A stretch of 64,000 bases of DNA from an uncultured Staphylococcaceae bacterium (GCA_964386745.1 CAYLSZ010000001.1:9179-73178), one strand, 5' to 3'; positions 877-63,273 are shown, numbered from the stretch's first letter. A program made the numbers and translations. Notes: generated from the letters alone by a model not told the origin.

Positions 877-912
877 ATTTTCAAAAACCCTGCAGAACCC
901 CCATATTTTACT
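877..912 (+). repeat. CTGCAG-core palindromic repeat, copy 1 (intergenic, relA/hisS)
   Basis: TTTTCAAAAACCCTGCAGAACCCCCATATTTTAC. Confidence 0.8.
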
Positions 913-959
913 TTAAATATACCTTTTTATTATTTATAATAATAAAAACGAGGAAACCT

Positions 960-2258
960 ATGTATTCAGTATTAAAAGGAACGCACGATGTTATTTTAGA
1001 TGAAGCGACTAAATATTCTTATATCGAAGAGTTATTAATTAACACCGCTGTCTTATATAACTATAAAGAATTCCGTACACCAATTATCGAAAATAGTGAA
1101 CTTTTTACTCGTTCAGTTGGTGAAGGAAGCGACATTGTAAGAAAAGAAATGTATACCTTCGTCGATAAAGGCGGAAGAAGTATAACCTTAAGACCAGAAA
1201 TGACGGCTGGAATTGCTCGTAGTATGGTCAATAATAAATTATTTTCGACAGACGATTTACCAGTTAAAGCTTTTTATGTTGGTCCTAATTTTAGATACGA
1301 AAGACCTCAACAAGGTAGATATCGTCAATTCAATCAATTTGGTATCGAATGTGTTGGCGTAACTTCGATTTATAGAGATGTTGAAGTTATCTCGCTTGGA
1401 TATAACGCTTTAAGACTTCTTGGTTTTGAAGGCTTAACGCTCAAAATCAATACTTTAGGTGACGAAGAAACTCGTACAAACTATAAAAACGCTTTAAAAG
1501 AATATTTTTCGAAGCACTTAGATGATATGTGCGAAGACTGTAAAGATCGCTACGAGAAAAATATTTTAAGAATTCTCGATTGTAAAGTTCCTTCTGATCA
1601 AGAAATCGTTAAAAAGGCACCATCAATTCGTGATTATTTAACACCAAAAGCTAAAGCTGATTTTGAGGCCATCTTAGAAGCTTTAAATAACTTAGATATT
1701 CCTTATGAAATTGATGACAACCTCGTTCGTGGATTAGATTATTACACTGGAGTTGTCTTTGAATATCACTATACATCGAAAGCCGGTAAAAATTATGGCG
1801 CAGTCGGTGCTGGTGGCCACTATGGCAATTTAATTAAAGAAATCGGTGGTCCAAATGTTGAGGGCGTCGGATTTGCAATGGGTATAGAAAGACTCGTTCA
1901 TTTAATGAACGATGAGGGATTATTTGATGGCATCAACGCTATAAAAGATGAACTTGATATTTACGTCATGCCTTTAGGTCAAGAAGGACTTAAAAAATCA
2001 AATGCTTTAGCAAATTCACTTCGACTTAATGGTTTCAAAGTCGATATTTGCCTCGAAAGTAAAAAAATGGGCGCTATGTTTACTAAAGCCGAACATAGAA
2101 ATGCACGCTATGGAATTATCATCGGCGAAAACGAAGTTAATGAAAATAAAGTTGTATTAAGAAACTTACAAACTAAAGAACAAATAGATGTAAAAGATGA
2201 AGATTTATTCGAAAAATTATGCGATATCTTCGATGAAGATGAACATCATCACGATTAA
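960..2258 (+). CDS. hisS: histidyl-tRNA synthetase
   Basis: 432 aa with class II aaRS motifs (RPEMTAGIAR, GGRYD-like core). RBS AGGAAA upstream. Followed by aspS as in Firmicutes. Confidence 0.93.
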   Translation: MYSVLKGTHDVILDEATKYSYIEELLINTAVLYNYKEFRTPIIENSELFTRSVGEGSDIVRKEMYTFVDKGGRSITLRPEMTAGIARSMVNNKLFSTDDLPVKAFYVGPNFRYERPQQGRYRQFNQFGIECVGVTSIYRDVEVISLGYNALRLLGFEGLTLKINTLGDEETRTNYKNALKEYFSKHLDDMCEDCKDRYEKNILRILDCKVPSDQEIVKKAPSIRDYLTPKAKADFEAILEALNNLDIPYEIDDNLVRGLDYYTGVVFEYHYTSKAGKNYGAVGAGGHYGNLIKEIGGPNVEGVGFAMGIERLVHLMNDEGLFDGINAIKDELDIYVMPLGQEGLKKSNALANSLRLNGFKVDICLESKKMGAMFTKAEHRNARYGIIIGENEVNENKVVLRNLQTKEQIDVKDEDLFEKLCDIFDEDEHHHD

Positions 2259-7992: not shown

Positions 7993-8167
7993 GACAATTG
8001 AAAGCAAGTTAGAACGCGTTGATGAAATAGCTGAAATTCTAACTAATGAAGAAATTGAACTGGATAAATCGATCGAATACTTTCAAGAGGCTATGAAGCT
8101 AATTGAAGAAATTGAAGGTCAAATTAAAGAGGCAAAAGACAAAATCAAAAACGCACAAAAAGCCTAG
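7973..8167 (+). CDS. xseB: exodeoxyribonuclease VII small subunit
   Basis: 64 aa coiled-coil protein overlapping the xseA stop. Confidence 0.85.
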   Translation: MSEKKTKTIESKLERVDEIAEILTNEEIELDKSIEYFQEAMKLIEEIEGQIKEAKDKIKNAQKA

Positions 8168-8212
8168 TTTTTGAAGAAAAACCCTGCAGATCTAAGGTAT
8201 TTTTTCAAAAAA
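8167..8212 (+). repeat. CTGCAG-core repeat, copy 2 (intergenic, xseB/dinB)
   Basis: GTTTTTGAAGAAAAACCCTGCAGATCTAAGGTATTTTTTCAAAAAAC. The AT-rich arms are inverted repeats of each other. Confidence 0.85.
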
Positions 8213-9424: not shown

Positions 9425-10253
9425 CGTGTTAATTACTGAAGCTATTGATAAATTTATTGAGTCAAAAACCTCAACAGGTCTAGAAGAATCAACTATCGAT
9501 TCTTATAAAGCTGATTTGAGAATATTTTTGAAATATTACCCACGAATCGAGTCGACGGAAGACTTAAATAACAATCTTTTCAACTATTTCATTTTTGACC
9601 AACAATTAGATGAACTTTCGAACGCTACAATCGCTCGTAGAATTGCTGTTTTAAAGGAATTTTTCTTATATTTAGAAGAACAAAATATATGTAAAGATTT
9701 AATAAAAACTATATCGTTGCCAAAAGTTGAAAGGCATCCAATAATCACATTAACAAAAGAAGAAATAGAAGTCTTTTTCAATGTATTTAACGAGAAAAAA
9801 ATAAACGAACTTCGCGATAAACTTTTATTTTCATTAATGTATTATTCAGGGCTAAGACTAAACGAAGCAATTAGCCTCAAAATCGACGATATAAATGCAA
9901 AAGAACAACTAATTTCTATCGAAAATTTTCGCCTTGTTCCAACCTGTACCCAACTAATCGATGTCTATATAAAATATATAGACATGCTCAAAAATAAAGA
10001 ACTTTTTGGTCAAACTGATTATCTATTTTTTAATCTCAAAACCCATAAACCTTTATCAATCGTGGCTATCAATAAAAACTTCAAAAAATATGTATCTCGG
10101 GCAGGCATAAATAAGAATATTACCCCTCATTCCTTACGCGATTCTTTCGCTATTCACCTCCTTCAAAACGGATGCAATATCCACGCATTAAAAGAACTAT
10201 TAGGACATAAAAATCTCAATACTACTTTAGAATATGAGAAATATTTAAAATAG
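9417..10253 (+). CDS. tyrosine site-specific recombinase of the XerC/XerD family
   Basis: 278 aa with an N-terminal SAM-like domain and C-terminal HSLRDSFAIHLL...LGHKNLNTTLEYEKY carrying the R-H-R-Y catalytic residues. Confidence 0.8.
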   Translation: MNNVLITEAIDKFIESKTSTGLEESTIDSYKADLRIFLKYYPRIESTEDLNNNLFNYFIFDQQLDELSNATIARRIAVLKEFFLYLEEQNICKDLIKTISLPKVERHPIITLTKEEIEVFFNVFNEKKINELRDKLLFSLMYYSGLRLNEAISLKIDDINAKEQLISIENFRLVPTCTQLIDVYIKYIDMLKNKELFGQTDYLFFNLKTHKPLSIVAINKNFKKYVSRAGINKNITPHSLRDSFAIHLLQNGCNIHALKELLGHKNLNTTLEYEKYLK

Positions 10254-10321: not shown

Positions 10322-11521
10322 ATGAAGTTTAAACGAATTTTTGTAATCGTAATGGATAGTTTAGGGATCGGCGAAGCACTCGATGCTGATAAATTTGATG
10401 ATGCCGGTACGAATACTTTTAAACATATCTCTGAAAAAATGCCTGAAGGCAAACTCAATATACCTAACATGAATAAACTCGGAATCGGTGATTTAGATGA
10501 TATTTTAGGTACAACTAAAGTTTCTCACCCTGAATCATATTCGATTAGACTCAATGAAGCTAGTAACGGAAAAGATACGATGACAGGTCACTGGGAAATG
10601 ATGGGTATATATACGACTAAACCTTTCCAAACTTTCACCGATACTGGATTTCCTGAAGATTTAATTTCTGAACTAGAAAAAGAAACCGGTCACAAAGTTA
10701 TTGGAAATAAAGCTGCTAGCGGCACCGAAATTTTAGTAGAACTTGGCGAAGAATGTATGAAGACGAATAATTTAATCGTCTATACAAGTAGCGATAGCGT
10801 CCTTCAAATTTGTGGGCACGAAGAAACGCTCGGCTTAGACGAATTATATAGATGCTGCGAAATTGCTAGAAAACTCACGATGAAACCAGAATGGTTCGTC
10901 GGTAGAGTCATCGCTAGACCATATATCGGCACAAATAAAGATAATTTTAAAAGAACGAGCAATAGACATGACTATACGATCTCGCCTAGTGGCGTGACCG
11001 CTATGAATATACTTAAAGATAACGGCTACGAAGTTCGTTGCGTTGGAAAAATTAACGATATTTTTAATGGCGTAGGTGTCACAAAAACCATTAAAACCGT
11101 ATCGAATGAAGACGGAATGAATAAAACGATGGCTTGGGTCAAAGATAAAGATTTTAAAGAAGGACTATGTTTTGTAAACTTAGTCGAATTTGATAGTGAA
11201 TATGGACATCGTCGTAATCCTATAGGTTATGGTAGAGCTATCGAAGCATTTGATAAACAACTTGGAGAAATGCTTTCTATTCTAAATGATGATGATTTAC
11301 TTATGATTACAGCAGATCATGGGAACGACCCAACCTATAAAGGAAGCGATCACACCCGCGAAAAAGTTTTCTTACTTATGTATTCAAAATGCCTAAAAGA
11401 AGGAAGAAACCTTGCAGATCGCGATTCTTTTGCTGATATCGGAGATACAGTCTTAACAAATTTTGGACTTAAAAAAGATACATCGATGATTGGAAAAACT
11501 ATAAAGGAGGTTTTTGAATAA
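10322..11521 (+). CDS. deoB: phosphopentomutase
   Basis: 399 aa with alkaline-phosphatase-superfamily motifs ([15 protein letters not shown]). Confidence 0.93.
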
Positions 11522-13956: not shown

Positions 13957-13996
13957 TATATTTTTAGTAGTTATTTAGTATATTTTTAGTAAATAA
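13957..13996 (+). repeat. TTTTTAGTA-type AT-rich direct repeats immediately 3' of a stop codon
   Basis: TATATTTTTAGTAGTTATTTAGTATATTTTTAGTAAATAATG. Similar clusters occur at 22649, 47487 and 50155. Confidence 0.5.
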
Positions 13997-27828: not shown

Positions 27829-28719
27829 ATGAAAGTCAAACTCATTGAACCCTATGGACTATGTTTTGGAGCATATAGCGCTTATAAAACATGTATAGAA
27901 ACGAAAGAAAAATACAAAGATTTGAATGTTTTTCTTTTTGGTCCAATCGTTCATAACGAATATATTAATGATGAATTGAGGAACATCGGTATCAATATTT
28001 TGGACTTGCCATATCAAAAATATTTCGATGTAATCGACACTTTAAACACTGATGATGTCGTTATTTTGCCTGCTCATGGACACGATCATAAACTGGAAGA
28101 AAAACTCAATAAAAAAGGCATTAAATATATCGATGCAACATGCAAAATCATCAAAGAGATACACGCAAAAATCGAAGAAACAGTTCAAAATTCAGAGGTT
28201 ATTTTTGTTGGACAAAAAGAACATATTGAAACAATAACTACTCTTCTACTTAATGACAAAATATATTTATATGACATCAAAGATGGTTTTATAAATAACA
28301 TAAAACCAAAAACTAATAATACTTCTATTTTTATGCAGTCAACATTAACTGAATTCGATATTACTGACGCTTTAACTTCAATAAAAACCGAATATCCACA
28401 ATCAATATTTGTTAATAATCTTTGCAATGCGTGTGTTCTTAGACAAAGGAAACTAATGGATAAAATTGACGATAATTCTTACGTTATTGTTGTCGGAAGC
28501 AAAACATCAAGCAATACAAATTCATTAGTCAAAATATGTGAAAAAACGGCTTTTTCAAAGAAAAACCCTGCAGATCGCCACTATTTTTCTCAAATTTCAT
28601 CATTTGAAGAAATAAAAAAGTTGGATTTAGATCCAACTTTAGATTACATAATTGTTTCAGGATCTTCCGTTCCAAATAAACTAGTTGAAGATATATATAA
28701 CTACGTCAAATCACTTTAG
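27829..28719 (+). CDS. ispH: 4-hydroxy-3-methylbut-2-enyl diphosphate reductase
   Basis: 296 aa LytB family. Contains an in-frame copy of the CTGCAG repeat near the C-terminus, encoding KKNPADRHYF. Confidence 0.88.
   Translation: MKVKLIEPYGLCFGAYSAYKTCIETKEKYKDLNVFLFGPIVHNEYINDELRNIGINILDLPYQKYFDVIDTLNTDDVVILPAHGHDHKLEEKLNKKGIKYIDATCKIIKEIHAKIEETVQNSEVIFVGQKEHIETITTLLLNDKIYLYDIKDGFINNIKPKTNNTSIFMQSTLTEFDITDALTSIKTEYPQSIFVNNLCNACVLRQRKLMDKIDDNSYVIVVGSKTSSNTNSLVKICEKTAFSKKNPADRHYFSQISSFEEIKKLDLDPTLDYIIVSGSSVPNKLVEDIYNYVKSL
28550..28598 (+). repeat. CTGCAG-core repeat, copy 3 (inside ispH, sense)
   Basis: CTTTTTCAAAGAAAAAACCCTGCAGATCGCCACTATTTTTCTCAAAT. Confidence 0.85.
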
Positions 28720-29482: not shown

Positions 29483-30135
29483 AATGTTTCCTCAATTTGT
29501 TTAATCTCCCTAATTACTTCTTCTCTTCTTGAATCAGGTAATTTTTGTTCTAATAATTTATTTAATCTATCTCGTTCGTTTGACCGATACGTTATAAATT
29601 CGTCGCTCTTATTTTGGGAAAGAATTGGACCAAATTTATAGTCTTTCTCGGTATAGGTTTTCACCCCTTTTTCAAACCTAATAATTTGGTAAAAAATATC
29701 ATCTTCGAATAGACATTTTTCTTCATCAATATAGTAACCTAACCCACAAACATATCTTCTAATCTCGTCGACAAAATTATGCGAATCTATTAAAAAATAT
29801 TGGGGATCTGCAGGGATTTTTTCTAAAAACGAGAGAATTTGTTTAATAAGAGTTGCTCCCATACCGGCTAAAACAGCCACATCATATTCTTTAGGAACAT
29901 CTTTTAAACCATCACTTAAGATGGCGTTAATTCGATTAGTAAAACCCGACTTTTTAATATTAGTTACTAAATTATTATAAGGTCCCTTTTTATTTTCGAC
30001 ACCGAGTAATAAATTTGTTTTGTTTAGCTCGGCTAATCGAATCAATAATAGTCCGTGGTCGCTACCAATATCAGCGACATTGGAGCCATCAGGTACCAAA
30101 TCACATATTAAACTTAATCTTTTACTTAAGTTCAT
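29479..30135 (-). CDS. trmK: tRNA (adenine22-N1)-methyltransferase
   Basis: SAM-binding motif DIGSDHG. YqfN synteny. Confidence 0.82.
   Translation of the reverse strand: MNLSKRLSLICDLVPDGSNVADIGSDHGLLLIRLAELNKTNLLLGVENKKGPYNNLVTNIKKSGFTNRINAILSDGLKDVPKEYDVAVLAGMGATLIKQILSFLEKIPADPQYFLIDSHNFVDEIRRYVCGLGYYIDEEKCLFEDDIFYQIIRFEKGVKTYTEKDYKFGPILSQNKSDEFITYRSNERDRLNKLLEQKLPDSRREEVIREIKQIEETL
29785..29830 (-). repeat. CTGCAG-core repeat, copy 4 (inside trmK, sense)
   Basis: Minus strand reads GAAAAAATCCCTGCAGATCCCCAATATTTTTTAATAG. Confidence 0.8.
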
Positions 30136-34608: not shown

Positions 34609-34620
34609 AATCTCCCTCCC

Positions 34621-34665
34621 TTTTTGAATTTTTATGTGGATTCTGCAGGGTTTTCCTGCAAAACA
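34621..34665 (-). repeat. CTGCAG-core repeat, copy 5 (glyQS 5' leader)
   Basis: Minus strand reads GTTTTGCAGGAAAACCCTGCAGAATCCACATAAAAATTCAAAAAGG. Confidence 0.8.
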
Positions 34666-35457: not shown

Positions 35458-36329
35458 CAAATATAGCCTATTTTTTTCAAAAACTCTGCAGAATCGCGCC
35501 AATTTTCATGAACTTGCACTCTAAGTTCAAGATTAACGTGGCGGCCAAGTAAGGCTTCAATATCCTTTCTAGATGCAATTCCGATGCGTTTAATCATCTT
35601 GCCGCCTTTACCAATCACGATGCCTTTTTGTGATTCTCTTTCGACTACAATTTTGGCATAGATATCAAGTTGTTTATTCGATTGATCAATATCATCACAA
35701 ATAACAGCAACGCCATGAGGCACTTCATCTTTTAATTGATATAAACACTTCTCACGAATAATTTCTTGAATTCTAAATTTAACATCGCGATCAGTCGTTT
35801 GGTTTACATCATAGTATTGAGCACCATCTTCGAGCTTGCTCTTAATCAAATCTAATAAACCGTCGATATTGAAAGGCTTAGTAGCACATATTTCTATTTC
35901 ATCTGCATCAGGATATATTTCTTTATAAAGTTCTTTAAGACTCAAAATAAGATTGATATTAGTTAAGTCAATCTTGTTAAAGACTAAAACCACTGGACAA
36001 TCAAACTTTAATCTATTGGTTAGCTCTTCATCATAATCATCAAATTTACGCGAAGCATCAATAATAAATAAAGCTAGATCGCTTTCACGTATTTTGCGAT
36101 ACGCTTTTTTATCTAAAGCCTCACCTAAAGTATTATGAGGTTTATGAATTCCAGGAGTATCGATGAAAATAATTTGCGAATCATCATCATTATAAATACC
36201 TAAAATATCATCTCGTGTCGTTTGAGATTTAGGAGAAACGATTGAGATTTTTTCACCAATTATTTCATTTAAGATGGTCGATTTCCCAACATTTGGTCGA
36301 CCTACTATCGATACGAACCCCGATTTCAT
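35457..36329 (-). CDS. era: GTPase Era
   Basis: G1 motif GRPNVGKST plus a KH domain. Confidence 0.95.
   Translation of the reverse strand: MKSGFVSIVGRPNVGKSTILNEIIGEKISIVSPKSQTTRDDILGIYNDDDSQIIFIDTPGIHKPHNTLGEALDKKAYRKIRESDLALFIIDASRKFDDYDEELTNRLKFDCPVVLVFNKIDLTNINLILSLKELYKEIYPDADEIEICATKPFNIDGLLDLIKSKLEDGAQYYDVNQTTDRDVKFRIQEIIREKCLYQLKDEVPHGVAVICDDIDQSNKQLDIYAKIVVERESQKGIVIGKGGKMIKRIGIASRKDIEALLGRHVNLELRVQVHENWRDSAEFLKKIGYI
35468..35510 (+). repeat. CTGCAG-core repeat, copy 6 (era 3' end, antisense, at the era/recO junction)
   Basis: TTTTTTTCAAAAACTCTGCAGAATCGCGCCAATTTTCATGAAC. Confidence 0.75.
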
Positions 36330-38424: not shown

Positions 38425-38427
38425 GGA

Positions 38428-39700: not shown

Positions 39701-40987
39701 TTATTCGATGATTGCGTTATTTTTTGTGTATTTATGAGTGACAATTTGGCCTTTTATATCTTTGTCGGACTTTATAAAAGTGCACAAATAGTTTGATGAA
39801 TGAGCTTTATATCCACCAAGTTTTTTATCGTAAGATTCGACTAAAAATTCGATTTCTTGATCATAAAAGTGCGAGATATATTCTTCTTCTAATTTTGTCG
39901 ATAGTTCGAGTAATTTATGGACTCTTTCTTTTTTAACTTTTTCGTCAACCTTTGGATAAATTTGACTTGCTTTTGTCCCTTTTCTATCGCTATAAGGGAA
40001 AACATGTACTTTAGAAAATTGTATATTCTTTATAAACTCGTAAGTCTTTAAAAATTCCTCATCGGTCTCGGTTGGATAGCCTACAATTACGTCAGTTGTG
40101 ATAGCTATGTTTTTACGAATTCGTCTAAGATCTGCAGCGTTTTTTTCAAAATTAGCCAGTTTATACTTACGGTTCATGTCCTTTAAAACCTTCTCTGAAC
40201 CGCTTTGTAAAGGGATATGAAGATGGTTAGCAATGTTAGGATATTTTTTTAATAGATATATAAATTTCTCATCTATTTGACTCTCTTCAATCGAGGAAAT
40301 ACGGATGCGATATAGCTCAGGAAAAGCGACTAAAATCTTCTCTAATAAATCTGAAAAAGTTATATCTTCTTTTAAATCTTTACCATAACTTCCTTGATCA
40401 ATTCCGGTTAAAACAATTTCTTTATAACCGTTATCGATTAAGTCTTTAATCTCTTTTAAAATTTCTTCACTATCACGACTTCTTGAGCGACCGCGAATGT
40501 AAGGAATTAAACAATACGAACAAAAATTATTGCACCCATCTTGAATCTTTACAAACGCTCTAGTTCTATCAAAATATTTCTTAATAGCGATATTTTCATA
40601 GTCTTTTATTTCTTTAAAAGTATCGACTAATACAATGTTTTTCTTGTTTTCGATATAATTTTCGACTAATTCAATAACATCGTCTCTATGGCTTGTCCCT
40701 AAAACGATATTTGCCCCATTATTAGCAAAGTATTCACCATCATTTTGTGAGGCGCAACCCATAACAAGGATAATTGCGTTCTCATAATTTTTTCTATATC
40801 TACGAAAAATTTTCTTAGATTTTGTGGAGCTCGTTTCAGTGACTGCGCACGTATTTAAAACGATTAAATCGACATCTTTTTCACCTTTTTTGGCTTCAAA
40901 AAACCCGTGTTCTATAAGCTTTTCATTGATAGCTATCGACTCGTAGCTATTTACTTTACATCCTAAAAAATCGCAGATAAATTTCAT
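39701..40987 (-). CDS. mtaB: radical-SAM methylthiotransferase of the MiaB/RimO family, probably MtaB (YqeV)
   Basis: MTTase N-terminal domain, CxxxCxxC (CNNFCSYC) and a TRAM domain. Synteny with rsmE and dnaJ. Confidence 0.82.
   Translation of the reverse strand: MKFICDFLGCKVNSYESIAINEKLIEHGFFEAKKGEKDVDLIVLNTCAVTETSSTKSKKIFRRYRKNYENAIILVMGCASQNDGEYFANNGANIVLGTSHRDDVIELVENYIENKKNIVLVDTFKEIKDYENIAIKKYFDRTRAFVKIQDGCNNFCSYCLIPYIRGRSRSRDSEEILKEIKDLIDNGYKEIVLTGIDQGSYGKDLKEDITFSDLLEKILVAFPELYRIRISSIEESQIDEKFIYLLKKYPNIANHLHIPLQSGSEKVLKDMNRKYKLANFEKNAADLRRIRKNIAITTDVIVGYPTETDEEFLKTYEFIKNIQFSKVHVFPYSDRKGTKASQIYPKVDEKVKKERVHKLLELSTKLEEEYISHFYDQEIEFLVESYDKKLGGYKAHSSNYLCTFIKSDKDIKGQIVTHKYTKNNAIIE
40120..40172 (-). 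repeat. CTGCAG-core repeat, copy 7 (inside mtaB, sense)
   Basis: Minus strand reads GAAAAAAACGCTGCAGATCTTAGACGAATTCGTAAAAAC. Confidence 0.75.
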
Positions 40988-41379: not shown

Positions 41380-41380
41380 A

Positions 41381-43810: not shown

Positions 43811-43856
43811 GTTTTTCGAGAAAAACCCTGCAGATCTCAACTATTTTTGTAAAAAC
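43811..43856 (+). repeat. CTGCAG-core repeat, copy 8 (intergenic, dnaK/dnaJ)
   Basis: GTTTTTCGAGAAAAACCCTGCAGATCTCAACTATTTTTGTAAAAAC. Confidence 0.85.
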
Positions 43857-45748: not shown

Positions 45749-46336
45749 TTAAGCAACTTTTTCTTCTTCTATAGTTTCAACTTTTTCTTCTTCCTTAGCT
45801 TCTTCACTAGGATGTTTACTAACGATAACCATCGCTGGTCGAATTAAGTGATCGTGAAGTTTATAGCCTATTAAATTTACATTTTTGACAAGATTTTCTT
45901 CGCCATCTGTTTCGATCGTATCGACAGCTTGCATCGTGTTTTCATCAAATTTAGTGTCCATCTGCGGGGTTATTACTTGAATTCCTTCTTCTTCTAAGAT
46001 CGAGATAAGCGAGTTATAGACGTATTTGAATCCTTGTAAATACTTTTTCATTTCTTCGCTTGTCGCTTCGAATCTAAATGCAAGATCGAATGAGTCGAGA
46101 ACTCCAAGCAATTTATCTACAAACCCTTCGATACGATATTTGATAACCTCGCGGTGATCTTTTTCGATATCTTTTCTTAGATTCGACATATCAGCATAGA
46201 CACGATAATATTCGTTTTTCCAATGCTCTTTATCGGCTAAGGCTTTAGTTATTTCTTCGTCTTTCTTGGCAAGTTTTCTTTTAACCGACTCTTTAACGGT
46301 TTCTTTTTCTTCTTTTTCTATTTTTTCCTCTGCCAC
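45749..46336 (-). CDS. grpE: nucleotide exchange factor GrpE
   Basis: 195 aa. Position in the operon and coiled-coil plus beta C-terminus. Confidence 0.9.
   Translation of the reverse strand: MAEEKIEKEEKETVKESVKRKLAKKDEEITKALADKEHWKNEYYRVYADMSNLRKDIEKDHREVIKYRIEGFVDKLLGVLDSFDLAFRFEATSEEMKKYLQGFKYVYNSLISILEEEGIQVITPQMDTKFDENTMQAVDTIETDGEENLVKNVNLIGYKLHDHLIRPAMVIVSKHPSEEAKEEEKVETIEEEKVA
45935..45985 (-). repeat. degenerate copy of the repeat (CCCCGCAGATG core) inside grpE
   Basis: Minus strand reads AATAACCCCGCAGATGGACACTAAATTTGATGAAAAC. Confidence 0.45.
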
Positions 46337-47535: not shown

Positions 47536-48648
47536 TTAAATTAACTTCAAAACAATAGTATCAAGGATGGACATGCCTTTTTTAGTTAGCACTATATTGT
47601 CGCTATTAATTTCTAGAAATCCTTCATCTACTAATGACTTCAAGGTTTCAGATTGAGATTCTAATAAATCGCTTCCAAATCTATTTTTGTATTCACTTAG
47701 CGATACGCCTTCGTTGGTTCTAAGATTTAACATTAAAAACTCTAAAAGTTCTTTGTCCTTATCGATTTCTTCCTTAAAATCGACTCTTTCGCCTCTAATA
47801 TATTTTGATATATTAGAAGTAATTTTATAGCGGTTTTTCGACAAAAACCCTGCAGAACCCAAACCAATTCCTAAAAACTCGTTGTCTTTCCAATAATTAA
47901 AATTGTGCTTACTTTGATAACCCGGCTTACAAAAATTACTGATTTCATAATGTATGAAACCACTTCTTTCAAGTTCATCGACAATGAAATTATAGATTTC
48001 TCGATCTTTATCTTCTTCTAATGGCTTAACACCTTGATTATAAAAAGTAGTTCCTTTTGAAACGGTCAAACTATAAATTGAAACGTGTGGAACATCCATT
48101 TCGACGATAAATTTTATATCGTTTTTAATGTCCTCAATCGTTTCGCCAGGGAGACCATATATAAAATCAAGGTTAATATTTTGAATATATTTCTTAATAA
48201 AATTTATAAGATTTTTAAAATCTATCTTCTTTCTAGATAGTCCTTTTAACGTATTTTCTTTTATGGATTGAATGCCAATTGAAAGGCGATTTACACCATA
48301 TCTATTAATTAGTTTTAGAAATTCTTCATCAATATCCTCAGGATTGGCTTCAATTGTAAATTCATAGTTTTCTTTTACCCTTAAATCTACTAAAGATATT
48401 AATAAATTTATTAGATTCTCATGCTCTAGACACGAAGGAGTTCCGCCACCAATATATATAGTTTTAAAAGGCTCAAACTCCATTTTTACCTTCGCTATAT
48501 CCGAAAAAAGTTCCTGCATATAAGGAACTTCAAAACACTTTTGTTTAATTAATTTAGTAAAGTCGCAATATGGACAAATATTTCGACAAAAAGGAATATG
48601 AATATATAAACTATTAATTTTTTTCAAATTATTTGGTTTTATCTTCAT
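47536..48648 (-). CDS. hemW: radical-SAM heme chaperone HemW (HemN-like, oxygen-independent coproporphyrinogen-III oxidase family)
   Basis: N-terminus YIHIPFCRNICPYCDF (CxxxCxxC). Synteny lepA-hemN-hrcA. Confidence 0.85.
   Translation of the reverse strand: MKIKPNNLKKINSLYIHIPFCRNICPYCDFTKLIKQKCFEVPYMQELFSDIAKVKMEFEPFKTIYIGGGTPSCLEHENLINLLISLVDLRVKENYEFTIEANPEDIDEEFLKLINRYGVNRLSIGIQSIKENTLKGLSRKKIDFKNLINFIKKYIQNINLDFIYGLPGETIEDIKNDIKFIVEMDVPHVSIYSLTVSKGTTFYNQGVKPLEEDKDREIYNFIVDELERSGFIHYEISNFCKPGYQSKHNFNYWKDNEFLGIGLGSAGFLSKNRYKITSNISKYIRGERVDFKEEIDKDKELLEFLMLNLRTNEGVSLSEYKNRFGSDLLESQSETLKSLVDEGFLEINSDNIVLTKKGMSILDTIVLKLI
47833..47878 (+). repeat. CTGCAG-core repeat, copy 9 (inside hemW, antisense)
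   Basis: GTTTTTCGACAAAAACCCTGCAGAACCCAAACCAATTCCTAAAAAC. Confidence 0.85.
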
Positions 48649-52024: not shown

Positions 52025-54397
52025 TTATAAACTTTTATAAAAGTCCTTTAAACTTTTTTTAATATCATCGACATTCTTTAAATATGTATAGTTAGGCCAC
52101 CATCTTTCAAATATTTTTCGATGCATTGAGCCACCATAACGTTGATCGATGAGTAATGCGCTTCCTCTATCGTTTTCGGTTCTAATTAATCTACCAACAG
52201 CTTGCATAACGTGATTTAAACCGACGTAACCATATGCATAGTTATAGCCATCAAAACCTTCTTTTATATAGTATTCCTTGAGCAAATTATTTCTAAAATC
52301 AAAACTTGGTAAACCGATCCCTATAATAACGACACCAATTAAACGATCGCCGATTAAATCGATACTTTCACTAAATACTCCACCCATAACAGTGAACGCA
52401 ACAACACTCTTAGTTGGTCTAAATTTAAAGTTTTCCAAGAAACTATTTCGATCTGAGACAGTCATATGAGGACTTTGAAAAACATATTTTATATCTTTGT
52501 TCTTTTTAAACTTTTCCATAAGCATTGATAAGTATTCAAAGGATGGTGCAAAAACTAAATAATTACCAACTTTACCATCTATAAAAGTCTCGATATTTTT
52601 ACAAACTTCAGGAAAACTTTCTTTTCTATTTGAATATAAAAGAGATAACGATTTATTAACTAATAAGTTCAAATGGCTCTTTTCGTAAGGTGACTCTAAA
52701 GCTAAATCATTCGTTTCTAAATCTTGCGTTAATAAATCTTTATAGTAAGGTAATGGCGATAGTGTCGCACTAAATAACACGCTTCCGCTAGTATTTTCGA
52801 TTTTCTCTTTTACATAATCTGAGGCGTTGAGACAAAAGATATTTAATTCGTATTCTTCTTTCTTTTTAGGGACATATTTTCTCACATATAAAGCAAAATT
52901 ATCGTTCCTCATTTCATGTAAAGTTAGAAATCTATTCACCTCTATAAAAAAGTTATTTACGACACTATCTTTAAAGTCAGGATGGTCACTTGTATAAGTG
53001 CGATATTGGTCCAATAATTTAGCAAGATTTTTTATGAAATTTTCATCAAAAGCCTCGATTAAAATCTCGCTTTTTTCAACAAAATCCCTGCAGAAGTCCA
53101 GTTTTTTTAATAAATTAAAGTCAGAAACAACCTTAGACAAAGCATTTTTTAGTTTTGTGTTTTTTATTTCTTTTAACGCCTTTTTAACATTAGAAAAATC
53201 TTCGGTGTTAATGCTTGAACTATACATATCTCTACTTCTAGAAATAAGGTTATGTGCTTCATCAATTAAAAGGAAATGATTAACCGAATAATCAGGCGTT
53301 TCAAAATATCTTTTTAGAGCGCTGATTGGATGAAATACATAATTGTAGTCGCAAATTATGTAGTTGCAGAACGTACTTAAGTCTAATGAAAATTCAAAAG
53401 GACAAATCGTATGTTTTAAACCAAGTTTCTTTAAATAATCTTCAGTATAAATATTCGATCCTATAAGTGCTTCTTTTAAAATATGCTTAAGTTTATCGTA
53501 ATAATTTCTCGTAAAAGGGCAATGATCTGGATTACAAACCTTTTCTTCACATAAGCACATCTTCTCTTTTGCATGAAGTGTAATAACTTTAACCTTTAAA
53601 CCATTCAATGCAAGCTTCGAAAATGTACTAATTGCTATATTAAATCCGCTATTTTTAGGAGTTAAATAGAAGATTTTATCGACTTTTTTCTTTAAATAGC
53701 TTTTAAGAGTTCCATAAATAGCACCCATCGTTTTTCCGATTCCTGTAGGTGCCTCAATATAAGAAACTTCATCATTAAGATAGGTCTTTTCAACAAGATT
53801 TATCATATCTTCTTGACCGTTTCTATAATACGGGAACGGAAATTCCAGTTGCTTTATAGATTCTTCGCAGGCTTTATTTATATATTCCAATATCTTATAA
53901 AAATCGATGTATTGGATGAGATAACCTTTAATCTTTTCTTCTAAAGTTTCAAAGTCATACTCATAATTTTTTATCGTCTCTTGGCGATCCGATTGAGAAA
54001 TATATGTAAGATAAATTTTGATGTTTCTAACATCATGTTCTTTAGCATACATATAGGCATAACACTCGGCTTGTCCAAGATGCCAAACCTCGTTTTTTTC
54101 AAAAAAAGCCTGCAGATCTCCATTAAAACTTTTGATTTCATCAATTATTACTTCGTCTTTATTGACTATAAGACCGTCGCATCTTCCGCTTAATTTAAAA
54201 GTATAATCATTGATTTTGATAACAGAAGAAAGGTTAACTTCACTTATATAATTGCCACCTTGTTTCTCTTGATAATACTTATGAATCTCGGTGCCTTTTT
54301 GCATCGTTCGAGTATTAAAATAACGGTCATCAATATCGCCCTGACGCAATAAAAAATCAACGAGTTGGTGAACACTAAGTTCAATGTATTTATTCAT
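52025..54397 (-). CDS. PD-(D/E)XK (RecB/Cas4-like) nuclease domain fused to a DinG/XPD-family Fe-S superfamily-2 helicase
   Basis: N-terminus H...GRCDGLI...IIDEIKS...QAECYAYMY, giving D, ExK and QxxxY motifs. Then Walker [11 protein letters not shown], the four-Cys cluster [13 protein letters not shown], and DEAH (LLIDEAHNL). Its start overlaps the fmt stop by 8 nt. Confidence 0.8.
53069..53116 (+). repeat. CTGCAG-core repeat, copy 10 (inside the nuclease-helicase gene, antisense)
   Basis: CTTTTTTCAACAAAATCCCTGCAGAAGTCCAGTTTTTTTAATAAATT. Confidence 0.8.
54092..54140 (+). repeat. CTGCAG-core repeat, copy 11 (inside the nuclease-helicase gene, antisense)
   Basis: GTTTTTTTCAAAAAAAGCCTGCAGATCTCCATTAAAACTTTTGAT. 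Confidence 0.8.
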
Positions 54398-56716: not shown

Positions 56717-58738
56717 TTAAGCCAAAAATTTATAAGTGATTGAACCTTCTAAGTCAGTTCTTCGATAAGTTATTCCAAGTTGATTTAATCGACTGATTAC
56801 ATCTTCACTTGGGTGACCATATCGATTGTTTAAACCACAAGAGATTATAGCTACTTCTGGATTGATATATTGCAAGAATGCCAGTGAGGAACTTGAACTA
56901 CTTCCATGATGGCCAAGCTTTAAATAATCGACATCCAAGGTATAGTTATTAATAATCTCTTCCTCAACAGTTGTGGTTGCATCACCCATAAATAAGAACG
57001 AATTATCAGCTACACTCAAATGTAAAACTAGACTTCGATCATTTTCATCTTGCGACGTGTCATAAATATAAGGATTTAAATTTTCAAAAGTTAAATTCCC
57101 ACTTACATAAGGGAACACAGAATTATAATCAACTATATTCTTTACCTTAAAATTCTCAGTTAGACTTTCTAGTGCACCGTAGTGGTCATAGTCATAATGG
57201 GTGATAAATACTGCCTCTAAAGAATAGATTCGATTACTTTTTAAAAACGGGATAAGCGAGTTAGTCGCAAGGTCATAACTTGTAAGTCCTCCAGTATCTA
57301 TAAGATACGCTTTGTTTCTATATCTAATTAATGTGCTATCTCCTTGCCCGACATTGATATAAGTTACTTGGAAGGTAAACGTATTCTCTATCGGTAAGAT
57401 ATAAATTCCAAGTAACAATATAGCTGAAAGTGCGACATTTTTGGAGATAAACAAAATTCGAAATTCGTGAAAATAAACGAAGATCTGCAGGGTTAAATAG
57501 TAAAAACAAAGGAAAAATGGATTTAACGCTGGAATGTTTATTGTAAAGATTGAGAAGTCAATCGCATCTAAAACTTTATAAAATCCAACAAATATCGCGT
57601 TAGTAAACGGAAGTTTAATTCCATAAAATCCTACGAAGCAAAATACGAATATAATTTTGAATAAAAACGTAAATGTATAAGAGAATAACATATTCAAAAT
57701 ATTGAATCCGTTATAAACACTTATAGTATAGGGAAGGAAAGTTGTGGCTATCAAAACCCTTCTTTTAACTGCCTGAATATATCTATTCCCTCGATTGAGC
57801 ATTGCCTTAGAAAATTGCATCACTATCATTACAAGTAAAGGTAAGAAGAAACTTGCTCGATAGACCAATGATGAACTAACTAATAGCAATATAAAGTAAA
57901 CTAAACACTTAAAGTTAAACTTATCTTCATAGGCGATTTTCCTATAAAAGATAATGTTTAGCGTAAAGAATAAAAAGACTCTAATGAATGTAAAACGGTA
58001 GATATTAAATATAAAAAACGGCGTGCATAGTAATAGAGAAAAGATTCGTGCGTGCTTTGTATCTAGAAAGTAGCCAAATAATTTAGCAATACCATAAAGA
58101 ATAAAATTTAAAAATAAACCGGTACTAGAAAATAGATGTGCAATCATTAGCTTATCGCTAATCGAAGAAACGCTATCAGTTTCCCCTAAAATCATGGCAT
58201 TAAATATTGCAAGTGCTTCTTCACTCGTAAATATCTTATTTACACTAGTCAAATTGGCTTCAAAATTTAGAGGGAAGTCCCACAAGACCTCTATATTGCT
58301 AGCCGTTATTATCCTGAACACGTTCTGATTATTAAGGTAATTTTGATAATCGAAGCTACTTTCATAGCTCGAAAATGATAATTCGCTCAATGTTCCTTCA
58401 ATTCTAACGACATCAAATAGTTTTAATTCCGTCGTGTAACAATAAATCTTTTCAGTAAGTGTTCGGATAATAACGTAGCTACTTCCCTTTTTAATAACTA
58501 TTCCCGTTATCGAAGCATATTGGATTAAGGATAAAATTTTGGGTAAAAATCTTAAAAATACGCCTAAACAAAAGATTGATATGACTATTACACTGCCCTT
58601 TGCATTTATATTTTTGGTTTTAACTAATCGAATTATTAGCAATACAAGTAGCGCTAATCCTATTACTATGTAGTCGAGTTTAGTAATAATTAGGCCGGCA
58701 ATTAACGCTAAAAGTAAAGCAAAATAATCTCTCATCAA
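56717..58738 (-). CDS. comEC: competence DNA-uptake channel protein ComEC
   Basis: 673 aa polytopic protein with a C-terminal metallo-beta-lactamase domain (HYDYDHYG, LKLGHHGS). Confidence 0.85.
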   Translation of the reverse strand: MMRDYFALLLALIAGLIITKLDYIVIGLALLVLLIIRLVKTKNINAKGSVIVISIFCLGVFLRFLPKILSLIQYASITGIVIKKGSSYVIIRTLTEKIYCYTTELKLFDVVRIEGTLSELSFSSYESSFDYQNYLNNQNVFRIITASNIEVLWDFPLNFEANLTSVNKIFTSEEALAIFNAMILGETDSVSSISDKLMIAHLFSSTGLFLNFILYGIAKLFGYFLDTKHARIFSLLLCTPFFIFNIYRFTFIRVFLFFTLNIIFYRKIAYEDKFNFKCLVYFILLLVSSSLVYRASFFLPLLVMIVMQFSKAMLNRGNRYIQAVKRRVLIATTFLPYTISVYNGFNILNMLFSYTFTFLFKIIFVFCFVGFYGIKLPFTNAIFVGFYKVLDAIDFSIFTINIPALNPFFLCFYYLTLQIFVYFHEFRILFISKNVALSAILLLGIYILPIENTFTFQVTYINVGQGDSTLIRYRNKAYLIDTGGLTSYDLATNSLIPFLKSNRIYSLEAVFITHYDYDHYGALESLTENFKVKNIVDYNSVFPYVSGNLTFENLNPYIYDTSQDENDRSLVLHLSVADNSFLFMGDATTTVEEEIINNYTLDVDYLKLGHHGSSSSSSLAFLQYINPEVAIISCGLNNRYGHPSEDVISRLNQLGITYRRTDLEGSITYKFLA
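57462..57510 (-). repeat. CTGCAG-core repeat, copy 12 (inside comEC, sense)
   Basis: Minus strand reads TTTGTTTTTACTATTTAACCCTGCAGATCTTCGTTTATTTTCACG. Confidence 0.75.
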
Positions 58739-59283
58739 TCAGTTAAGATAATATAGTTTCTTAATTTCGTATAAGTTGCGTTACCAATTCCGCTTACATT
58801 CATGACGTCTTCTAAAGTTTGATATAAGCCGTTTTCGTTACGATAAGAAATAATGCTTGAACTAATCGAATCACCAATGCCATCGATAAAAGTAAGTTCG
58901 CTAGCATCGGTATAAGAGTTGATATTTACTTTTGTAATTTCTTCAGTCGAACAAATATCAGTTGGATCATATCTTGGTGGGATATAATAGGTCATATTTT
59001 TTTCGACTGTAGCAGTTGGAAAATAAGCTCTTGTATCGGCTCTATCAGTAATACCACCAGCTTTATCGATTAAATCTTGCATCGTCGAGCCTTCTTCAAG
59101 CAAATAGTTTCCTGAACTTACAACGTATCCTGATATTCCTATCGAGTTACGCGTAATTTCGTCTTCTGTTGCTACGACTGTGGCTGCCGTAGTAACATTT
59201 GTAAAGTCGAATACTTGCATGATTAAAAGTCCGACAATCGTCACGATAACAACGCCTAAAATTATCTTTAAAGTTAAAGTCAT
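58735..59283 (-). CDS. comEA: competence DNA-binding protein ComEA
   Basis: N-terminal TM anchor, SLBB-like middle region and C-terminal helix-hairpin-helix (NVSGIGNATYTKL). Translationally coupled to comEC. Confidence 0.8.
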   Translation of the reverse strand: MTLTLKIILGVVIVTIVGLLIMQVFDFTNVTTAATVVATEDEITRNSIGISGYVVSSGNYLLEEGSTMQDLIDKAGGITDRADTRAYFPTATVEKNMTYYIPPRYDPTDICSTEEITKVNINSYTDASELTFIDGIGDSISSSIISYRNENGLYQTLEDVMNVSGIGNATYTKLRNYIILTD

Positions 59284-60258: not shown

Positions 60259-60673
60259 TAATTCTCCTTATATACCTATTTAATATAATAATCGCGCTAA
60301 ACATATCTATAAGCTCGTCGATTTTAGCCTTTTTCATACCCATATTTTCCATCATTTCTTTAGCTTCGATAGTCGAATATCTTTCATCTTCATAGATAGC
60401 TTCTAAATCAGGTTTTTCTTTTTGGATATCTTCTATAAAACGCTTAACCGATTTACATCTAGTTTCTTCTTTATCGGCTAAAGTTAAGGGGTATCCTATA
60501 ACTACTTTATTGATCTTTTCTTTTTCGAGTAAAGCAAGTAAATGTTCACGGGCTTTTTTATAGTTACCTCTTTCGAAATTAAAGTTTTCTTTGCCATGGA
60601 CTATACCAAGTTCATCGCTAAGCGAAATACCTAAAGTAGTCGTTCCTAAATCGAGTCCAAGATATCTTTCCAC
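60245..60673 (-). CDS. ruvX: Holliday-junction-resolvase-like pre-16S rRNA nuclease YqgF/RuvX
   Basis: N-terminus LGLDLGTTTLGISLSD (RNase H-like). Confidence 0.85.
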   Translation of the reverse strand: MERYLGLDLGTTTLGISLSDELGIVHGKENFNFERGNYKKAREHLLALLEKEKINKVVIGYPLTLADKEETRCKSVKRFIEDIQKEKPDLEAIYEDERYSTIEAKEMMENMGMKKAKIDELIDMFSAIIILNRYIRRINDGK

Positions 60674-63273
60674 TATAATAATTCCTTAATGACGTCGACG
60701 ATTAAATCTTTTTCGTTGACAATTGACCCTTGAGCGATGTCAGCTCTTCCGCCTCCATTTCCACCGTATCTTGTAGTGATAGTTTTTAGTAACTCATTAG
60801 CCTTAATACCACGTTCTAATTGGTATTTTCCACAAGCTACCATAAGTGACTTTTTACCCTCTTTTTCACCGACAAATATAATACAGTAATTATCCAAATT
60901 GTTCTTAACTTCATCTAAAATGAACATGACATCGTTGCGATCCATATCAGTAAATTTATGAAGTAAGACCTTATGAGCAGCAATTTCGATAAACTCTGTT
61001 TTTAAAGTTTTAGCCAGGTTCTGCAGGGTTTTTTGTTTATATTCTTCGATTTTTTTATTTAAGACTTTGTTAATATCGAAAAGTTCCATAACTTTCTTTT
61101 GAACGTCTAAGAAGTTTGGAGCGTTAACTAAAGCCTTAACTTTTAATAACGCTTTTTCTCTTTCCTTTAAATATCTATAAGCTTCAATTCCAGTTAAAGC
61201 AGTGATTCTTCTAACGCCACTAGAAATCGATTCTTCGCTATGAATTACGAATAATCCGATCTCTGAAGAATTTAAAACGTGAGAGCCTCCACAAAATTCT
61301 GTTGACACTTTTCCAAAGGAAACGACACGGACAATTTGGCCATATTTTTCACCAAATTCAGCAATTGCTCCAAGCTTCAAAGCTTCCTTAATTGGGAGCT
61401 CTTGAGTAACTCTAGGAATAGCCAATTGAATAAATTCGTTAACTTTTTCTTCAATCGTTTCAATCTCTTCTAAAGTTAATTTTCTATCAAAATTGAAGTC
61501 GAATCTAAGATATTTATCGCAAACAAAACTACCTTTTTGACGGACTTCTTCACCTAAAACTTCCATCAAAGCACTTTGTAATAAGTGAGTTGCTGAATGG
61601 TTTTTAATTATATCATTATGACGAATTTGATCGACTTTTAAAGTGAATTTATCGCCTATTTTTATCGTTCCTTTTTCAACTTTTACGTGATGTAAATGTT
61701 GTTTATTAGGAGCGCTAGAAACATCTAAAACTTGCGCGATAGTTCTCTTATTTTCGATAGTTCCAGCATCAGCAACTTGCCCACCTTTTTCAGCATAGAA
61801 ATTAGTAGTATCGAAAGCGACTTCTCCTTCATCTTCAATTACATCGACTTTGACACCATTTTTGAAAGTTCCTATAACTTTTGCGCTAATTTCTTTTGCA
61901 TCGTTTATATAGATAGATTCATCCTTAAAATTAAGTAAATCTTCAGATTGCTTGTTAAATGATTGTTGAACCTTTCTTGAATTACGAGCTTGTTCTTTTT
62001 GTTTTTCAAGAAGTTTATTGAATCCTTGCATATCGACTTCAATATTTAAGTCTTCACAGATTTCTCTAGTAAGCTCTATTGGGAATCCATATGAATCATA
62101 GAGTAAAAATGCGTCTTTTTCACTTAACTTTTTGGCTCTACTAACAATTTCGTGTAAGACTTTTTCGCCGACAACTAAAGTTTTGATAAATTTTTCTTCT
62201 TCGGATTTAATCTTTTTCTCAATCATTCCTTTTTTATCGACTAAATAAGGATAAAATCCCTTCATTACATCGATAACAGTTCCGACAAGTTTATATAAAA
62301 ATGGTTCATTGAGATTAATTTTTTGGCCATAGCGCATAGCTCTACGTAAAAGTCTACGTAAAACGTATCCTCTTCCCTCATTAGAAAAATCGGCGCCATC
62401 TGCTAAAGCAAAAGTACATGTTCTAATATGATCAGCAATAACTCTATAAGGCATTAAATTTTTGCCCTCATAAGGAGCTTTTGATAATTTTTCGGTTTCC
62501 TTAATAATAGGCATAAATAAATCGGTTTCGAAATTAGTATCAGCACCTTGAAGGATGCTTGCAATTCTTTCTAAACCTGCGCCAGTATCGATGTTTTTAT
62601 GTGGTAATTCTTTATAATTTGCCCTATTGACACCTTCTTCAGCGTTATATTGAGAGAAAACTATACCCCAAATTTCGATATAACGATCATTATCGATTTC
62701 TTCTTCTAATAATTTTAAGCCAAGTTTTTCAGGGTCATATTTTTCGCCACGATCATAAAAAACTTCGGTATTTGGACCACATGGACCCGAACCTATTTCC
62801 CAGAAATTTCCTTCTAATGGGATAAGATGATCTTTAGGAAGACCAACTTTTTGCCATAATTCATAGGTTTCTTTATCATCTGGATGATAGGTTGCATATA
62901 ATTTTGTAACGTCTAAACCAAAATATTTTTCACTCGTTAAAATTTCATAAGCCCGTGGGATAACTTCTTTTCTAAAATAATCACCAATCGAAAAATTGCC
63001 GAGCATTTCAAAAAAAGTATGATGACGAGCCGTTTTTCCGACGTTACTTATATCATTAGTACGAATACATTTTTGAACATTAACTATACGTTTACATTCA
63101 GGAACTTCACTTCCATCAAAATATTTCTTTAAAGAGCTAACTCCAGCGTTGATCCAAAGTAAAGTTGGATCATCGTGAGGGATTAAACTCGCTCCTTCTT
63201 CGATATGGTGTCCGCGTTCATGAAAAAAGTTTAACCATGTTTTGCGTATTTCTTGACTAGAAAGTTTTTTCAT
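60673..63273 (-). CDS. alaS: alanyl-tRNA synthetase
   Basis: 866 aa with class II motifs, an editing domain (HSATHLL...CGGSH) and a C-terminal DHHA1 domain. Confidence 0.95.
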   Translation of the reverse strand: MKKLSSQEIRKTWLNFFHERGHHIEEGASLIPHDDPTLLWINAGVSSLKKYFDGSEVPECKRIVNVQKCIRTNDISNVGKTARHHTFFEMLGNFSIGDYFRKEVIPRAYEILTSEKYFGLDVTKLYATYHPDDKETYELWQKVGLPKDHLIPLEGNFWEIGSGPCGPNTEVFYDRGEKYDPEKLGLKLLEEEIDNDRYIEIWGIVFSQYNAEEGVNRANYKELPHKNIDTGAGLERIASILQGADTNFETDLFMPIIKETEKLSKAPYEGKNLMPYRVIADHIRTCTFALADGADFSNEGRGYVLRRLLRRAMRYGQKINLNEPFLYKLVGTVIDVMKGFYPYLVDKKGMIEKKIKSEEEKFIKTLVVGEKVLHEIVSRAKKLSEKDAFLLYDSYGFPIELTREICEDLNIEVDMQGFNKLLEKQKEQARNSRKVQQSFNKQSEDLLNFKDESIYINDAKEISAKVIGTFKNGVKVDVIEDEGEVAFDTTNFYAEKGGQVADAGTIENKRTIAQVLDVSSAPNKQHLHHVKVEKGTIKIGDKFTLKVDQIRHNDIIKNHSATHLLQSALMEVLGEEVRQKGSFVCDKYLRFDFNFDRKLTLEEIETIEEKVNEFIQLAIPRVTQELPIKEALKLGAIAEFGEKYGQIVRVVSFGKVSTEFCGGSHVLNSSEIGLFVIHSEESISSGVRRITALTGIEAYRYLKEREKALLKVKALVNAPNFLDVQKKVMELFDINKVLNKKIEEYKQKTLQNLAKTLKTEFIEIAAHKVLLHKFTDMDRNDVMFILDEVKNNLDNYCIIFVGEKEGKKSLMVACGKYQLERGIKANELLKTITTRYGGNGGGRADIAQGSIVNEKDLIVDVIKELL
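61000..61045 (-). repeat. CTGCAG-core repeat, copy 13 (inside alaS, sense)
   Basis: Minus strand reads ACAAAAAACCCTGCAGAACCTGGCTAAAACTTTAAAAAC. Confidence 0.8.

Follow-up and report, generated by a model that had tools for sequence, protein, structure and literature searches.

The DNA analysed in the current study is a stretch of 64,000 nucleotides from an uncultured Staphylococcaceae bacterium (GCA_964386745.1, CAYLSZ010000001.1:9179-73178), hereafter the window, and it is to this 64-kb window that all statements on the source genome apply. The window has a GC content of 32.6%, is 93% coding and is densely packed with housekeeping genes, the first half carrying hisS, aspS, tkt, nusB, xseA, dinB, an xerD-like gene, parE/parC, efp, ispG, ispH, a trmK-like gene, sigA and dnaG, and the second half glyQS, recO, era, mtaB, dnaJ/dnaK/grpE/hrcA, hemW, lepA, a gene for a DinG/Rad3-like helicase, fmt, holA, comEC, comEA, greA, ruvX and alaS. 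No transposase gene, gene for a transposase associated with repetitive extragenic palindromic (REP) elements (RAYT), restriction-modification or methyltransferase gene, prophage or island was found in it. Dispersed among these genes are 13 copies of a word of approximately 35–45 bp built around the PstI site CTGCAG, or about one copy per 4.9 kb, and it is this word, its origin and its possible role that are considered here.

In the window the word follows the consensus (G)TTTTT-N3-4-AAAAACC-CTGCAG-A(T/A)C-N5-TATTTTT, at times with a further AAAAAC beyond it. The repeat is real: it is the single dominant repeated k-mer in a k-mer enrichment analysis of the window, and the exact core CCCTGCAGAWC occurs eight times where dinucleotide-preserving shuffles predict 0.02 occurrences. 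CTGCAG itself is present at 14 sites against 4.16 expected, 13 of which share the motif context while the lone exception lies at 7220; the shortage of PstI sites outside the motif (one observed, approximately four expected) is not significant. Searching with AAAAACCCTGCAGAWC and allowing up to three mismatches returned 15 matches as compared to 0.94 expected, comprising six exact matches, three with one mismatch, four with two and two with three. An independent weight matrix of 40 columns, trained solely on 32 copies from other genomes, recovered 14 window sites scoring 10 bits or more, where Markov-1 simulations gave 0.1, and 13 sites scoring 14 bits or more, where the same simulations gave 0.02. 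A preliminary description of this DNA, made from its sequence, had reported 13 clear copies and had placed nearly every PstI site inside the element, and both statements are upheld, the copy number being far above the shuffled expectation. Two additional degenerate copies had been proposed as well, namely the core-like 16-mers AGAAACCTTGCAGATC at 11405..11420 on the + strand and AATAACCCCGCAGATG within grpE at 45959..45974 on the − strand; at up to three mismatches these are indistinguishable from chance.

The 13 copies together yield an information content of approximately 45 bits, spread over a conserved span that consists of the T-tract, the A-tract, CC-CTGCAG-AWC, five variable positions and TATTTTT. 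The left arm forms a T5/A5 mini-palindrome by itself, while the core and its flanks are asymmetric. Since the outermost right AAAAAC is weakly conserved and the left arm is palindromic in its own right, the earlier view of the two arms as inverted repeats of each other was overstated. The centres of the A/T tracts are located approximately 15 and 5 bp before CTGCAG and approximately 18 bp after its first base, and are thus roughly in helical phase, at spacings of about one and two turns of the helix, as are the flanks of the uptake signal sequence (USS) of Haemophilus; owing to this phasing, the motif DNA may well be bent. A 7.4-kb stretch of the Logan assembly of SRR7039261, which is 99.99% identical to the window, reproduces all three copies that it covers, and the copies are therefore no assembly artefact. 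An assembly or adapter origin is further ruled out by the presence of copies in NCBI, ENA and JGI assemblies of other organisms.

Eight copies lie on the + strand and five on the − strand, and four are located in spacers or leaders while nine are genic, in agreement with the orientations and locations first described. The spacer copies precede hisS and dinB, occupy the glyQS leader and separate dnaK from dnaJ. The first of these (873..918, +; 41 bits; core AAAAACCCTGCAGAAC) lies 14 bp past the stop codon of an ACT-domain gene and approximately 40 bp ahead of hisS. The second (8167..8212, +; 37.6 bits) is of the full form with both T5/A5 arms; the listed TTG start of the dinB open reading frame (ORF), at 8171, falls within it, and since the ATG at 8237 is the likelier start, this copy is regarded as intergenic. 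The third, a weaker copy (34620..34665, −; 15.9 bits; GAAAACCCTGCAGAAT), occupies part of the short leader of glyQS, immediately ahead of the ribosome-binding site and ATG, and the fourth (43811..43856, +; 45 bits), which lies between the stop codon of dnaK and the start of dnaJ and is antisense to both genes, is the best copy in the window. Four of 13 copies in spacers, in DNA that is 93% coding, represents an enrichment with a binomial probability of about 0.01 by our arithmetic, and in the other genomes that bear the motif 12 of 27 copies are intergenic.

Of the nine genic copies, five are in sense and four in antisense orientation. The sense copies are those in ispH (28551..28596, +), encoding KKNPADRHYF; in the trmK-like gene (29785..29830, −), encoding EKIPADPQYF; in mtaB (40109..40154, −), encoding EKNAADLRRI; in comEC (57462..57507, −), where the left arm is degenerate and the peptide is LTLQIFVYF; and in alaS (60998..61043, −), encoding KTLQNLAK. 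In antisense orientation, copies are found at the 3′ end of era (35469..35514, +; DSAEFLKK), where the copy overlaps a possible recO start region, in hemW (47833..47878, +), over the conserved GIGLGSAGFLSK segment, and twice in the gene for the DinG/Rad3-like helicase, once in a variable region (53071..53116, +; FCRDFVEK) and once over a semi-conserved F-x-E-K-N...W segment (54093..54138, +; LQAFFEK). All nine peptides quoted in the preliminary description are present at the genes named there, and as they are encoded in differing frames and on differing strands, conservation resides at the level of DNA and not of protein. A repeated peptide is ruled out, at least four combinations of frame and strand encoding different peptides.

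To establish how widely the word occurs, species-representative genomes were scanned with TTTTN{4,6}AAAAHCCCTGCAGAWC. Among the matches listed, most were single, chance-type matches in unrelated phyla, while clusters were present in three low-GC metagenome-assembled genomes (MAGs): Bacilli bacterium RGIG4904, of roe deer rumen origin, with at least eight stretches that include two duplicate pairs and hence at least six distinct ones, bacterium SUG1359, with at least seven stretches, and Candidatus Onthovivens sp. SUG2468, with at least four. A fourth MAG, BRZ_QT bin77, holds at least one match. The duplicate pairs of RGIG4904 (L024/L055 on contigs 4/5 and L031/L075 on contigs 7/4) are 100% identical over 5.5 kb and 3.4 kb, respectively; this reflects assembly redundancy or recent duplication and inflates the match count of that genome. 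Some 8-kb stretches of the motif-bearing MAGs carry extra copies. In these MAGs the word extends as AACTCAACTATTTTT with a longer conserved right half, and this right half, CTCAACTATTTTT, is conserved even though it lies outside the search pattern; in the window, T is as frequent as A after CTGCAGA and the next five bases are variable, which amounts to a difference in dialect. In JGI metagenomes the AAC form was detected on 11 low-GC contigs and the ATC form was matched nowhere. IMG/VR yielded a single match, without the flanks, and plasmid and phage records yielded none, although the phages of these hosts are perhaps not represented in these collections. The fetched loci of the other motif-bearing MAGs contain no orthologues in common with the window.

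A different picture emerged from nine syntenic relatives (L002, L004, L080, L081, L082, L095, L096, L097 and L098; 177 kb in total, GC content 24–35%), which carry no copy save for one isolated near-match, whereas the homologous 21.5 kb of the window contains six. Exact look-ups of the TrmK and DnaK sequences of the window gave no match. The window helicase has an identical counterpart on an NCBI MAG contig, the next-best relatives are approximately 51% identical to it, and all nine fetched relatives, including the five best-scoring after the query, are without the word, so that its distribution is patchy. The near-match, AAAAAAGCCTGCAGAAC at position 6613 in comEC of L097, is a near-perfect core for which we estimate a chance expectation of about 0.002, and on this account it may represent either a relic or a copy introduced by recombination. 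K-mer enrichment revealed no other repeated word in the nine motif-free relatives that could serve as an alternative dialect; a triple occurrence of AACCCAGACGA in L082 was rejected as merely reflecting Asn-Pro-Asp codons. The GC content of eight of the nine relatives is 24–29%, as compared to 32.6% for the window, with L082 at 35%, and the order of genes between alaS and dnaJ is maintained. Conservation in related genomes is therefore seen in part, with copies in at least four other Bacilli MAGs and, apart from the one near-match, none in the nine syntenic relatives, and the motif appears to be clade-specific and common to at least four other rumen or gut Bacilli MAGs.

CGG is nearly absent from the window ORFs, with four occurrences in 20,056 codons (residue 228 of 9417-10253, residue 184 of 29479-30135, residue 294 of 37222-38442 and residue 107 of 60673-63273). 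Two of these four codons fall at positions that are Trp or otherwise aromatic in homologues: that at TrmK residue 184 aligns with a W in PDB 3lec, and that at AlaS residue 107 aligns with a W in L002 and L081 and with an F in L080. The CGG in the xerD-like gene looks like an ordinary basic position. Reassignment of CGG to Trp has been predicted for Onthovivens (PMC13092985), and the pattern in the window hints at a reassignment of this type, although the xerD-like case speaks otherwise.

Comparison of the genic copies with their orthologues provides information on how the word arises. When 11 helicase sequences were aligned, the two copies fell in columns free of insertions relative to homologues of 44–51% identity, and the copies in alaS, comEC and hemW are likewise gap-free against orthologues, the hemW copy even covering the conserved GIGLGSAGFL segment. 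MtaB places 409 residues on 409 profile positions and so contains no insertion, Era places 289 residues on 291 profile positions from end to end, and the trmK-like product shows an indel of at most one residue against PDB 3lec. Eight of the nine genic copies are thus without an element-sized gap relative to orthologues or family profiles. The ninth is that of ispH, in which the PDB alignment ends just before the copy and the protein is approximately 13 residues longer overall than its family profile. At an orthologous gene start in two other motif-bearing MAGs, one possesses GAGTTCTGCAGGGTTTTTAAAGAAAAACC and the other GAATTCAGCTATTTTTATAAAGAAGATCC in register, while an intergenic copy of one species gives way in its relative to unrelated sequence that is similar in length. 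At the alaS position, motif-free relatives (L002:3447-3500, L004:1786-1840, L095:3392-3445) contain partial proto-sites, among them AAAAAGCCTGCAGTTC and AAAAAAACCCTCAAATCTCAAGTATTTT. Taken together, the gap-free genic copies, the in-register differences between orthologues and the proto-sites indicate that copies arise and decay by point substitutions. They would arise preferentially in coding sequence that already contains T/A tracts, such as that for Phe-x-Glu-Lys-Asn, and individual sites seem to turn over fast between related species.

An origin by substitution excludes a mobile element of the miniature inverted-repeat transposable element (MITE) or REP type, and the corresponding alternative of the preliminary description is refuted. 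A MITE, or a miniature element resembling REP sequences or bacterial interspersed mosaic elements (BIME), that copies itself would account for the length of approximately 45 bp, for the short T5/A5 palindromic arms and for the position of the best copies in spacers near gene ends. Such an element would be expected to leave blocks that are present or absent at orthologous sites, and instead these sites differ by substitutions; the gap-free genic copies lie in many frames and within conserved protein segments, no target-site duplications accompany them, neither a transposase nor a RAYT gene is encoded in the window, and the copies do not form a stable hairpin (z-scores of −0.7 to −2.1). We therefore regard a self-copying element as a very improbable explanation.

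A function at the level of RNA, as terminator, attenuator, leader element or small RNA, is suggested by those copies that are located just past a stop codon or within the short hisS and glyQS leaders. RNA folding of six copies, for two of which both strands were folded, gave z-scores in the range just quoted, no better than those of shuffled sequences; the folds have no structure in common and contain no GC-rich stem followed by a U-run. No part of the 64 kb matched Rfam at gathering thresholds, the copies stand in both orientations relative to transcription, and nine of them are inside coding regions. On these grounds an RNA element, a terminator or a T-box was rejected, and an RNA-level role for the word is scarcely credible. 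The Rfam search also revealed no T-box leader match ahead of hisS/aspS (875-960), glyQS (34609-34773) or alaS (63274-63494), an uncommon situation in Bacillota; of these leaders, those of hisS and glyQS are shorter than 170 bp and are partly taken up by motif copies. We conclude that the element is a clade-specific DNA-level recognition word, and is neither a mobile element nor an RNA.

Which activity reads this word at the DNA level is less readily settled. The palindromic centre, CTGCAG, is a classical restriction-modification target and lies within the motif at 13 of its 14 occurrences in the window, and the word is abundant in genes and spacers and conserved across related genomes. It is conceivable that a methyltransferase, a repair activity or short-patch conversion acts on CTGCAG in this context and skews mutation or repair towards the word, which would then resemble the highly iterated palindrome HIP1. 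A preprint (bioRxiv 10.64898/2026.06.24.733823) describes HIP1 as recognised by methylases and its function as open. The present word lacks symmetry and exceeds any methylase site in length by a wide margin, and the window encodes neither a methyltransferase nor a restriction enzyme. Moreover, ordinary CTGCAG outside the motif is common in the other motif-bearing MAGs, from which it follows that CTGCAG alone is not the unit. Finally, we know of no repair bias that creates words of 30 bp, and a HIP1-like origin appears quite improbable.

The arrangement of copies along the window bears on the possibility of a chromosomal role. Both GC skew and gene orientation switch at approximately 14 kb (~13,950-14,150): genes left of this point lie on the + strand and those right of it on the − strand, and the two groups converge on a site that looks like a replication terminus. 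The xerD-like recombinase gene (9417-10253) and parE/parC (17260-21794) are situated near the switch, and the convergent spacer at it contains a tandem pair of AGTATATTTTTAGTA; a search for a dif site of the B. subtilis type found none within three mismatches. Relative to this switch, the copies divide into seven on the presumed leading and six on the lagging strand, and in this small sample there is no strong bias of the kind that defines polar chromosomal motifs such as Chi, the FtsK-orienting polar sequences (KOPS) or the SpoIIIE recognition sequences (SRS). No good copy is present between 8,213 and 28,550, a 20-kb interval that spans the switch; as copies are spaced 4.9 kb apart on average, a gap of this size has a probability of approximately 20% by our arithmetic after allowing for 13 gaps, and is not significant.

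These data may be read as an array of sites for a chromosomal DNA-binding protein, be it nucleoid-associated or involved in segregation, occlusion or global regulation in the manner of Noc, SlmA or MatP, which would bind the bent, AT-flanked GC core and whose sites would be kept by selection for chromosome organisation. The high information content would suit such a protein, and the phased A/T tracts suggest a bent protein-DNA complex. The word is tolerated inside genes, as are Noc and SlmA sites, clade specificity would follow from possession of one protein, and the interval without copies over the terminus-like switch, for all that it is not significant, recalls the scarcity of Noc and SlmA sites around the terminus. 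On the other hand, known arrays are palindromic, serving dimeric proteins, whereas the core and flanks described here are asymmetric; site turnover between related species is fast, which would not be expected under positional selection; the implied 300–400 or so sites per genome is high for systems of this kind; and no gene for a candidate protein lies within the window. We rate a site array as unlikely, if still a contender. Inspection of the consensus led to the dismissal of resemblances to the CodY box, the ComK box, the Cheo (LexA) box, the IHF site and the sigma-70 promoter, whose defining spacing or half-sites do not match. Whatever probability the named explanations leave over falls to a mechanism not yet described.

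The reading that we favour, and hold tentatively, is that the motif may be an uptake-signal-like sequence, maintained by biased uptake and recombination. Under such a scheme a surface component of the competence machinery would bind double-stranded DNA carrying the word; this receptor would probably be a minor pseudopilin or another DNA receptor and not ComEA. DNA from the same or a related species would then be taken up more often through ComEA and ComEC, and homologous recombination of such fragments would slowly enrich the word in the genome by molecular drive, new copies being supplied by point substitution at look-alike sites such as Phe-x-Glu-Lys-Asn codons (TTT..GAAAAAAAC). We infer that a protein binds the word, that uptake is biased and that drive, rather than selection, maintains the sites. 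Overrepresentation in core housekeeping DNA, as predicted for an uptake signal, was observed across the 64 kb, as were occurrence in genes and spacers in both orientations by way of substitution and possession of the word in related species with dialects. A long, asymmetric and unpolarised word that arises by substitution, is enriched in spacers, exists in dialects and turns over between species matches the published signature of the USS and of the DNA uptake sequence (DUS) of Neisseriaceae.

The competence genes visible in the window are solely comEA (58735-59283) and comEC (56717-58738), which together span 56717..59283 on the − strand, and the earlier report that both are encoded, with one copy of the word within comEC, is correct. 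Several observations nevertheless weigh against an uptake signal. Both genes are syntenic and intact in the motif-free relatives, ComEA being 75% identical between the window and the closest of these, L002, and no feature of ComEA was seen that distinguishes the window from the motif-free genomes; since comEA and comEC are equally present where the word is absent, the visible competence genes explain no specificity. Within the 64 kb there is no pilus or pseudopilus gene, comG included, and neither comF, dprA nor a receptor gene. USS and DUS occur about once per 1.1–1.25 kb, and the density of approximately one copy per 4.9 kb is thus some four times lower. To our knowledge, the model Bacillota take up DNA without sequence preference, and we know of no precedent in this phylum. 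The word is also longer and richer in information than either USS or DUS, a property that would suit a high-specificity protein site just as well, and the patchy distribution requires losses or transfer of the determinant. Lastly, the part of the source genome covered is 64 kb. The proposal that the element parallels uptake signals consequently holds in part: overrepresentation, the absence of orientation bias, substitution origin in multiple frames, spacer enrichment, dialects and turnover speak for it, but these features are not unique to uptake sequences and comEA and comEC are likewise present in relatives without the motif. Membership of the uptake-sequence family is a candidate assignment.

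Specific uptake has been established solely in Pasteurellaceae and Neisseriaceae (PMC7811141, PMC12616744, PMC2346458, PMC1626085), and the literature consulted yielded no description of the present word or of any uptake sequence in Bacillota. In its fullest form the uptake reading would make the motif the first DNA-uptake specificity signal outside the Proteobacteria, a word of approximately 30 bp with lineage dialects that occurs in uncultured, reduced-genome gut and rumen Bacilli of the Onthovivens-like type, is read by a new receptor of a Gram-positive-type competence apparatus and is gained and lost over short evolutionary times; this is possible, and somewhat more doubtful than uptake-related maintenance as such. 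With specific uptake known from two proteobacterial families, and with both the roles of drive and selection and the identity of the Pasteurellaceae receptor under debate, an independent third case would be valuable, and here it would come from a different phylum with a different cell envelope. Given closely related genomes that carry the word and others that lack it, a simple comparison of gene presence and absence could reveal the receptor, and molecular drive would become testable on natural metagenome populations. Should the word instead prove to be a protein site array or HIP1-like, it would still represent a genome-wide signal that has gone undescribed in an uncultured lineage widespread in the gut, and in either case the motif can serve in practice as a marker for binning these genomes and for spotting foreign DNA in them.

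Among known dispersed sequences, HIP1 (GCGATCGC) of cyanobacteria likewise is a DNA-level word of coding and non-coding DNA that is conserved within a clade and has a palindromic, restriction-type centre. It differs in being a perfect 8-bp palindrome, tied to methyltransferases and much denser, whereas the present word is asymmetric, covers approximately 30–45 bp and has no methylase gene beside it in the window. REP/BIME, Correia, BOX and RUP elements and MITEs are similar in size, show some palindromy and are dispersed in multiple copies, but these are inserted or duplicated spacer blocks with stable hairpins, while the copies described here are mostly genic, gap-free and without a stable fold. 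Words read by proteins, such as the Noc-binding site (NBS), the SlmA-binding site (SBS), matS of MatP, Chi and KOPS/SRS, are also short, dispersed and tolerated in genes; NBS, SBS and matS, however, are palindromic and limited to chromosomal domains, in contrast to a long and asymmetric word, and Chi and KOPS are 8-mers that are strongly skewed to the leading strand, in contrast to the unpolarised copies of the window.

The DUS of Neisseriaceae, for which ComP is the receptor, resembles the present motif as an overrepresented, clade-specific word with lineage dialects, the dialects here being A(T/A)C followed by a variable N5 in the window and AACTCAAC in the other MAGs, and as a word found in genes and spacers, often near gene ends. 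Unlike this motif, which is known from sequence alone and for which no ComP-like minor pilin was identified, the DUS is a 12-mer (AT-GCCGTCTGAA) that often occurs as inverted pairs forming terminators, and neither such pairs nor stable stems were seen here. Set against the USS of Pasteurellaceae, Haemophilus included (core AAGTGCGGT), the present word is unrelated in sequence, A/T tracts flank its core on both sides, its conserved span is longer and its density approximately four times lower; the host belongs to the uncultured Bacilli and is presumably without an outer-membrane secretin, and the word, seen so far in genome data, comes with no receptor candidate. The USS nonetheless resembles it in several respects. 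A GC-containing, asymmetric core accompanied by A/T tracts in helical phase is common to the two, as is the use of both orientations with no bias towards one strand; both are mostly genic in several frames by way of substitution while being enriched in spacers, form subtypes in related species (the Hin and Apl types in the case of the USS) and are found in genomes in which competence genes are present.

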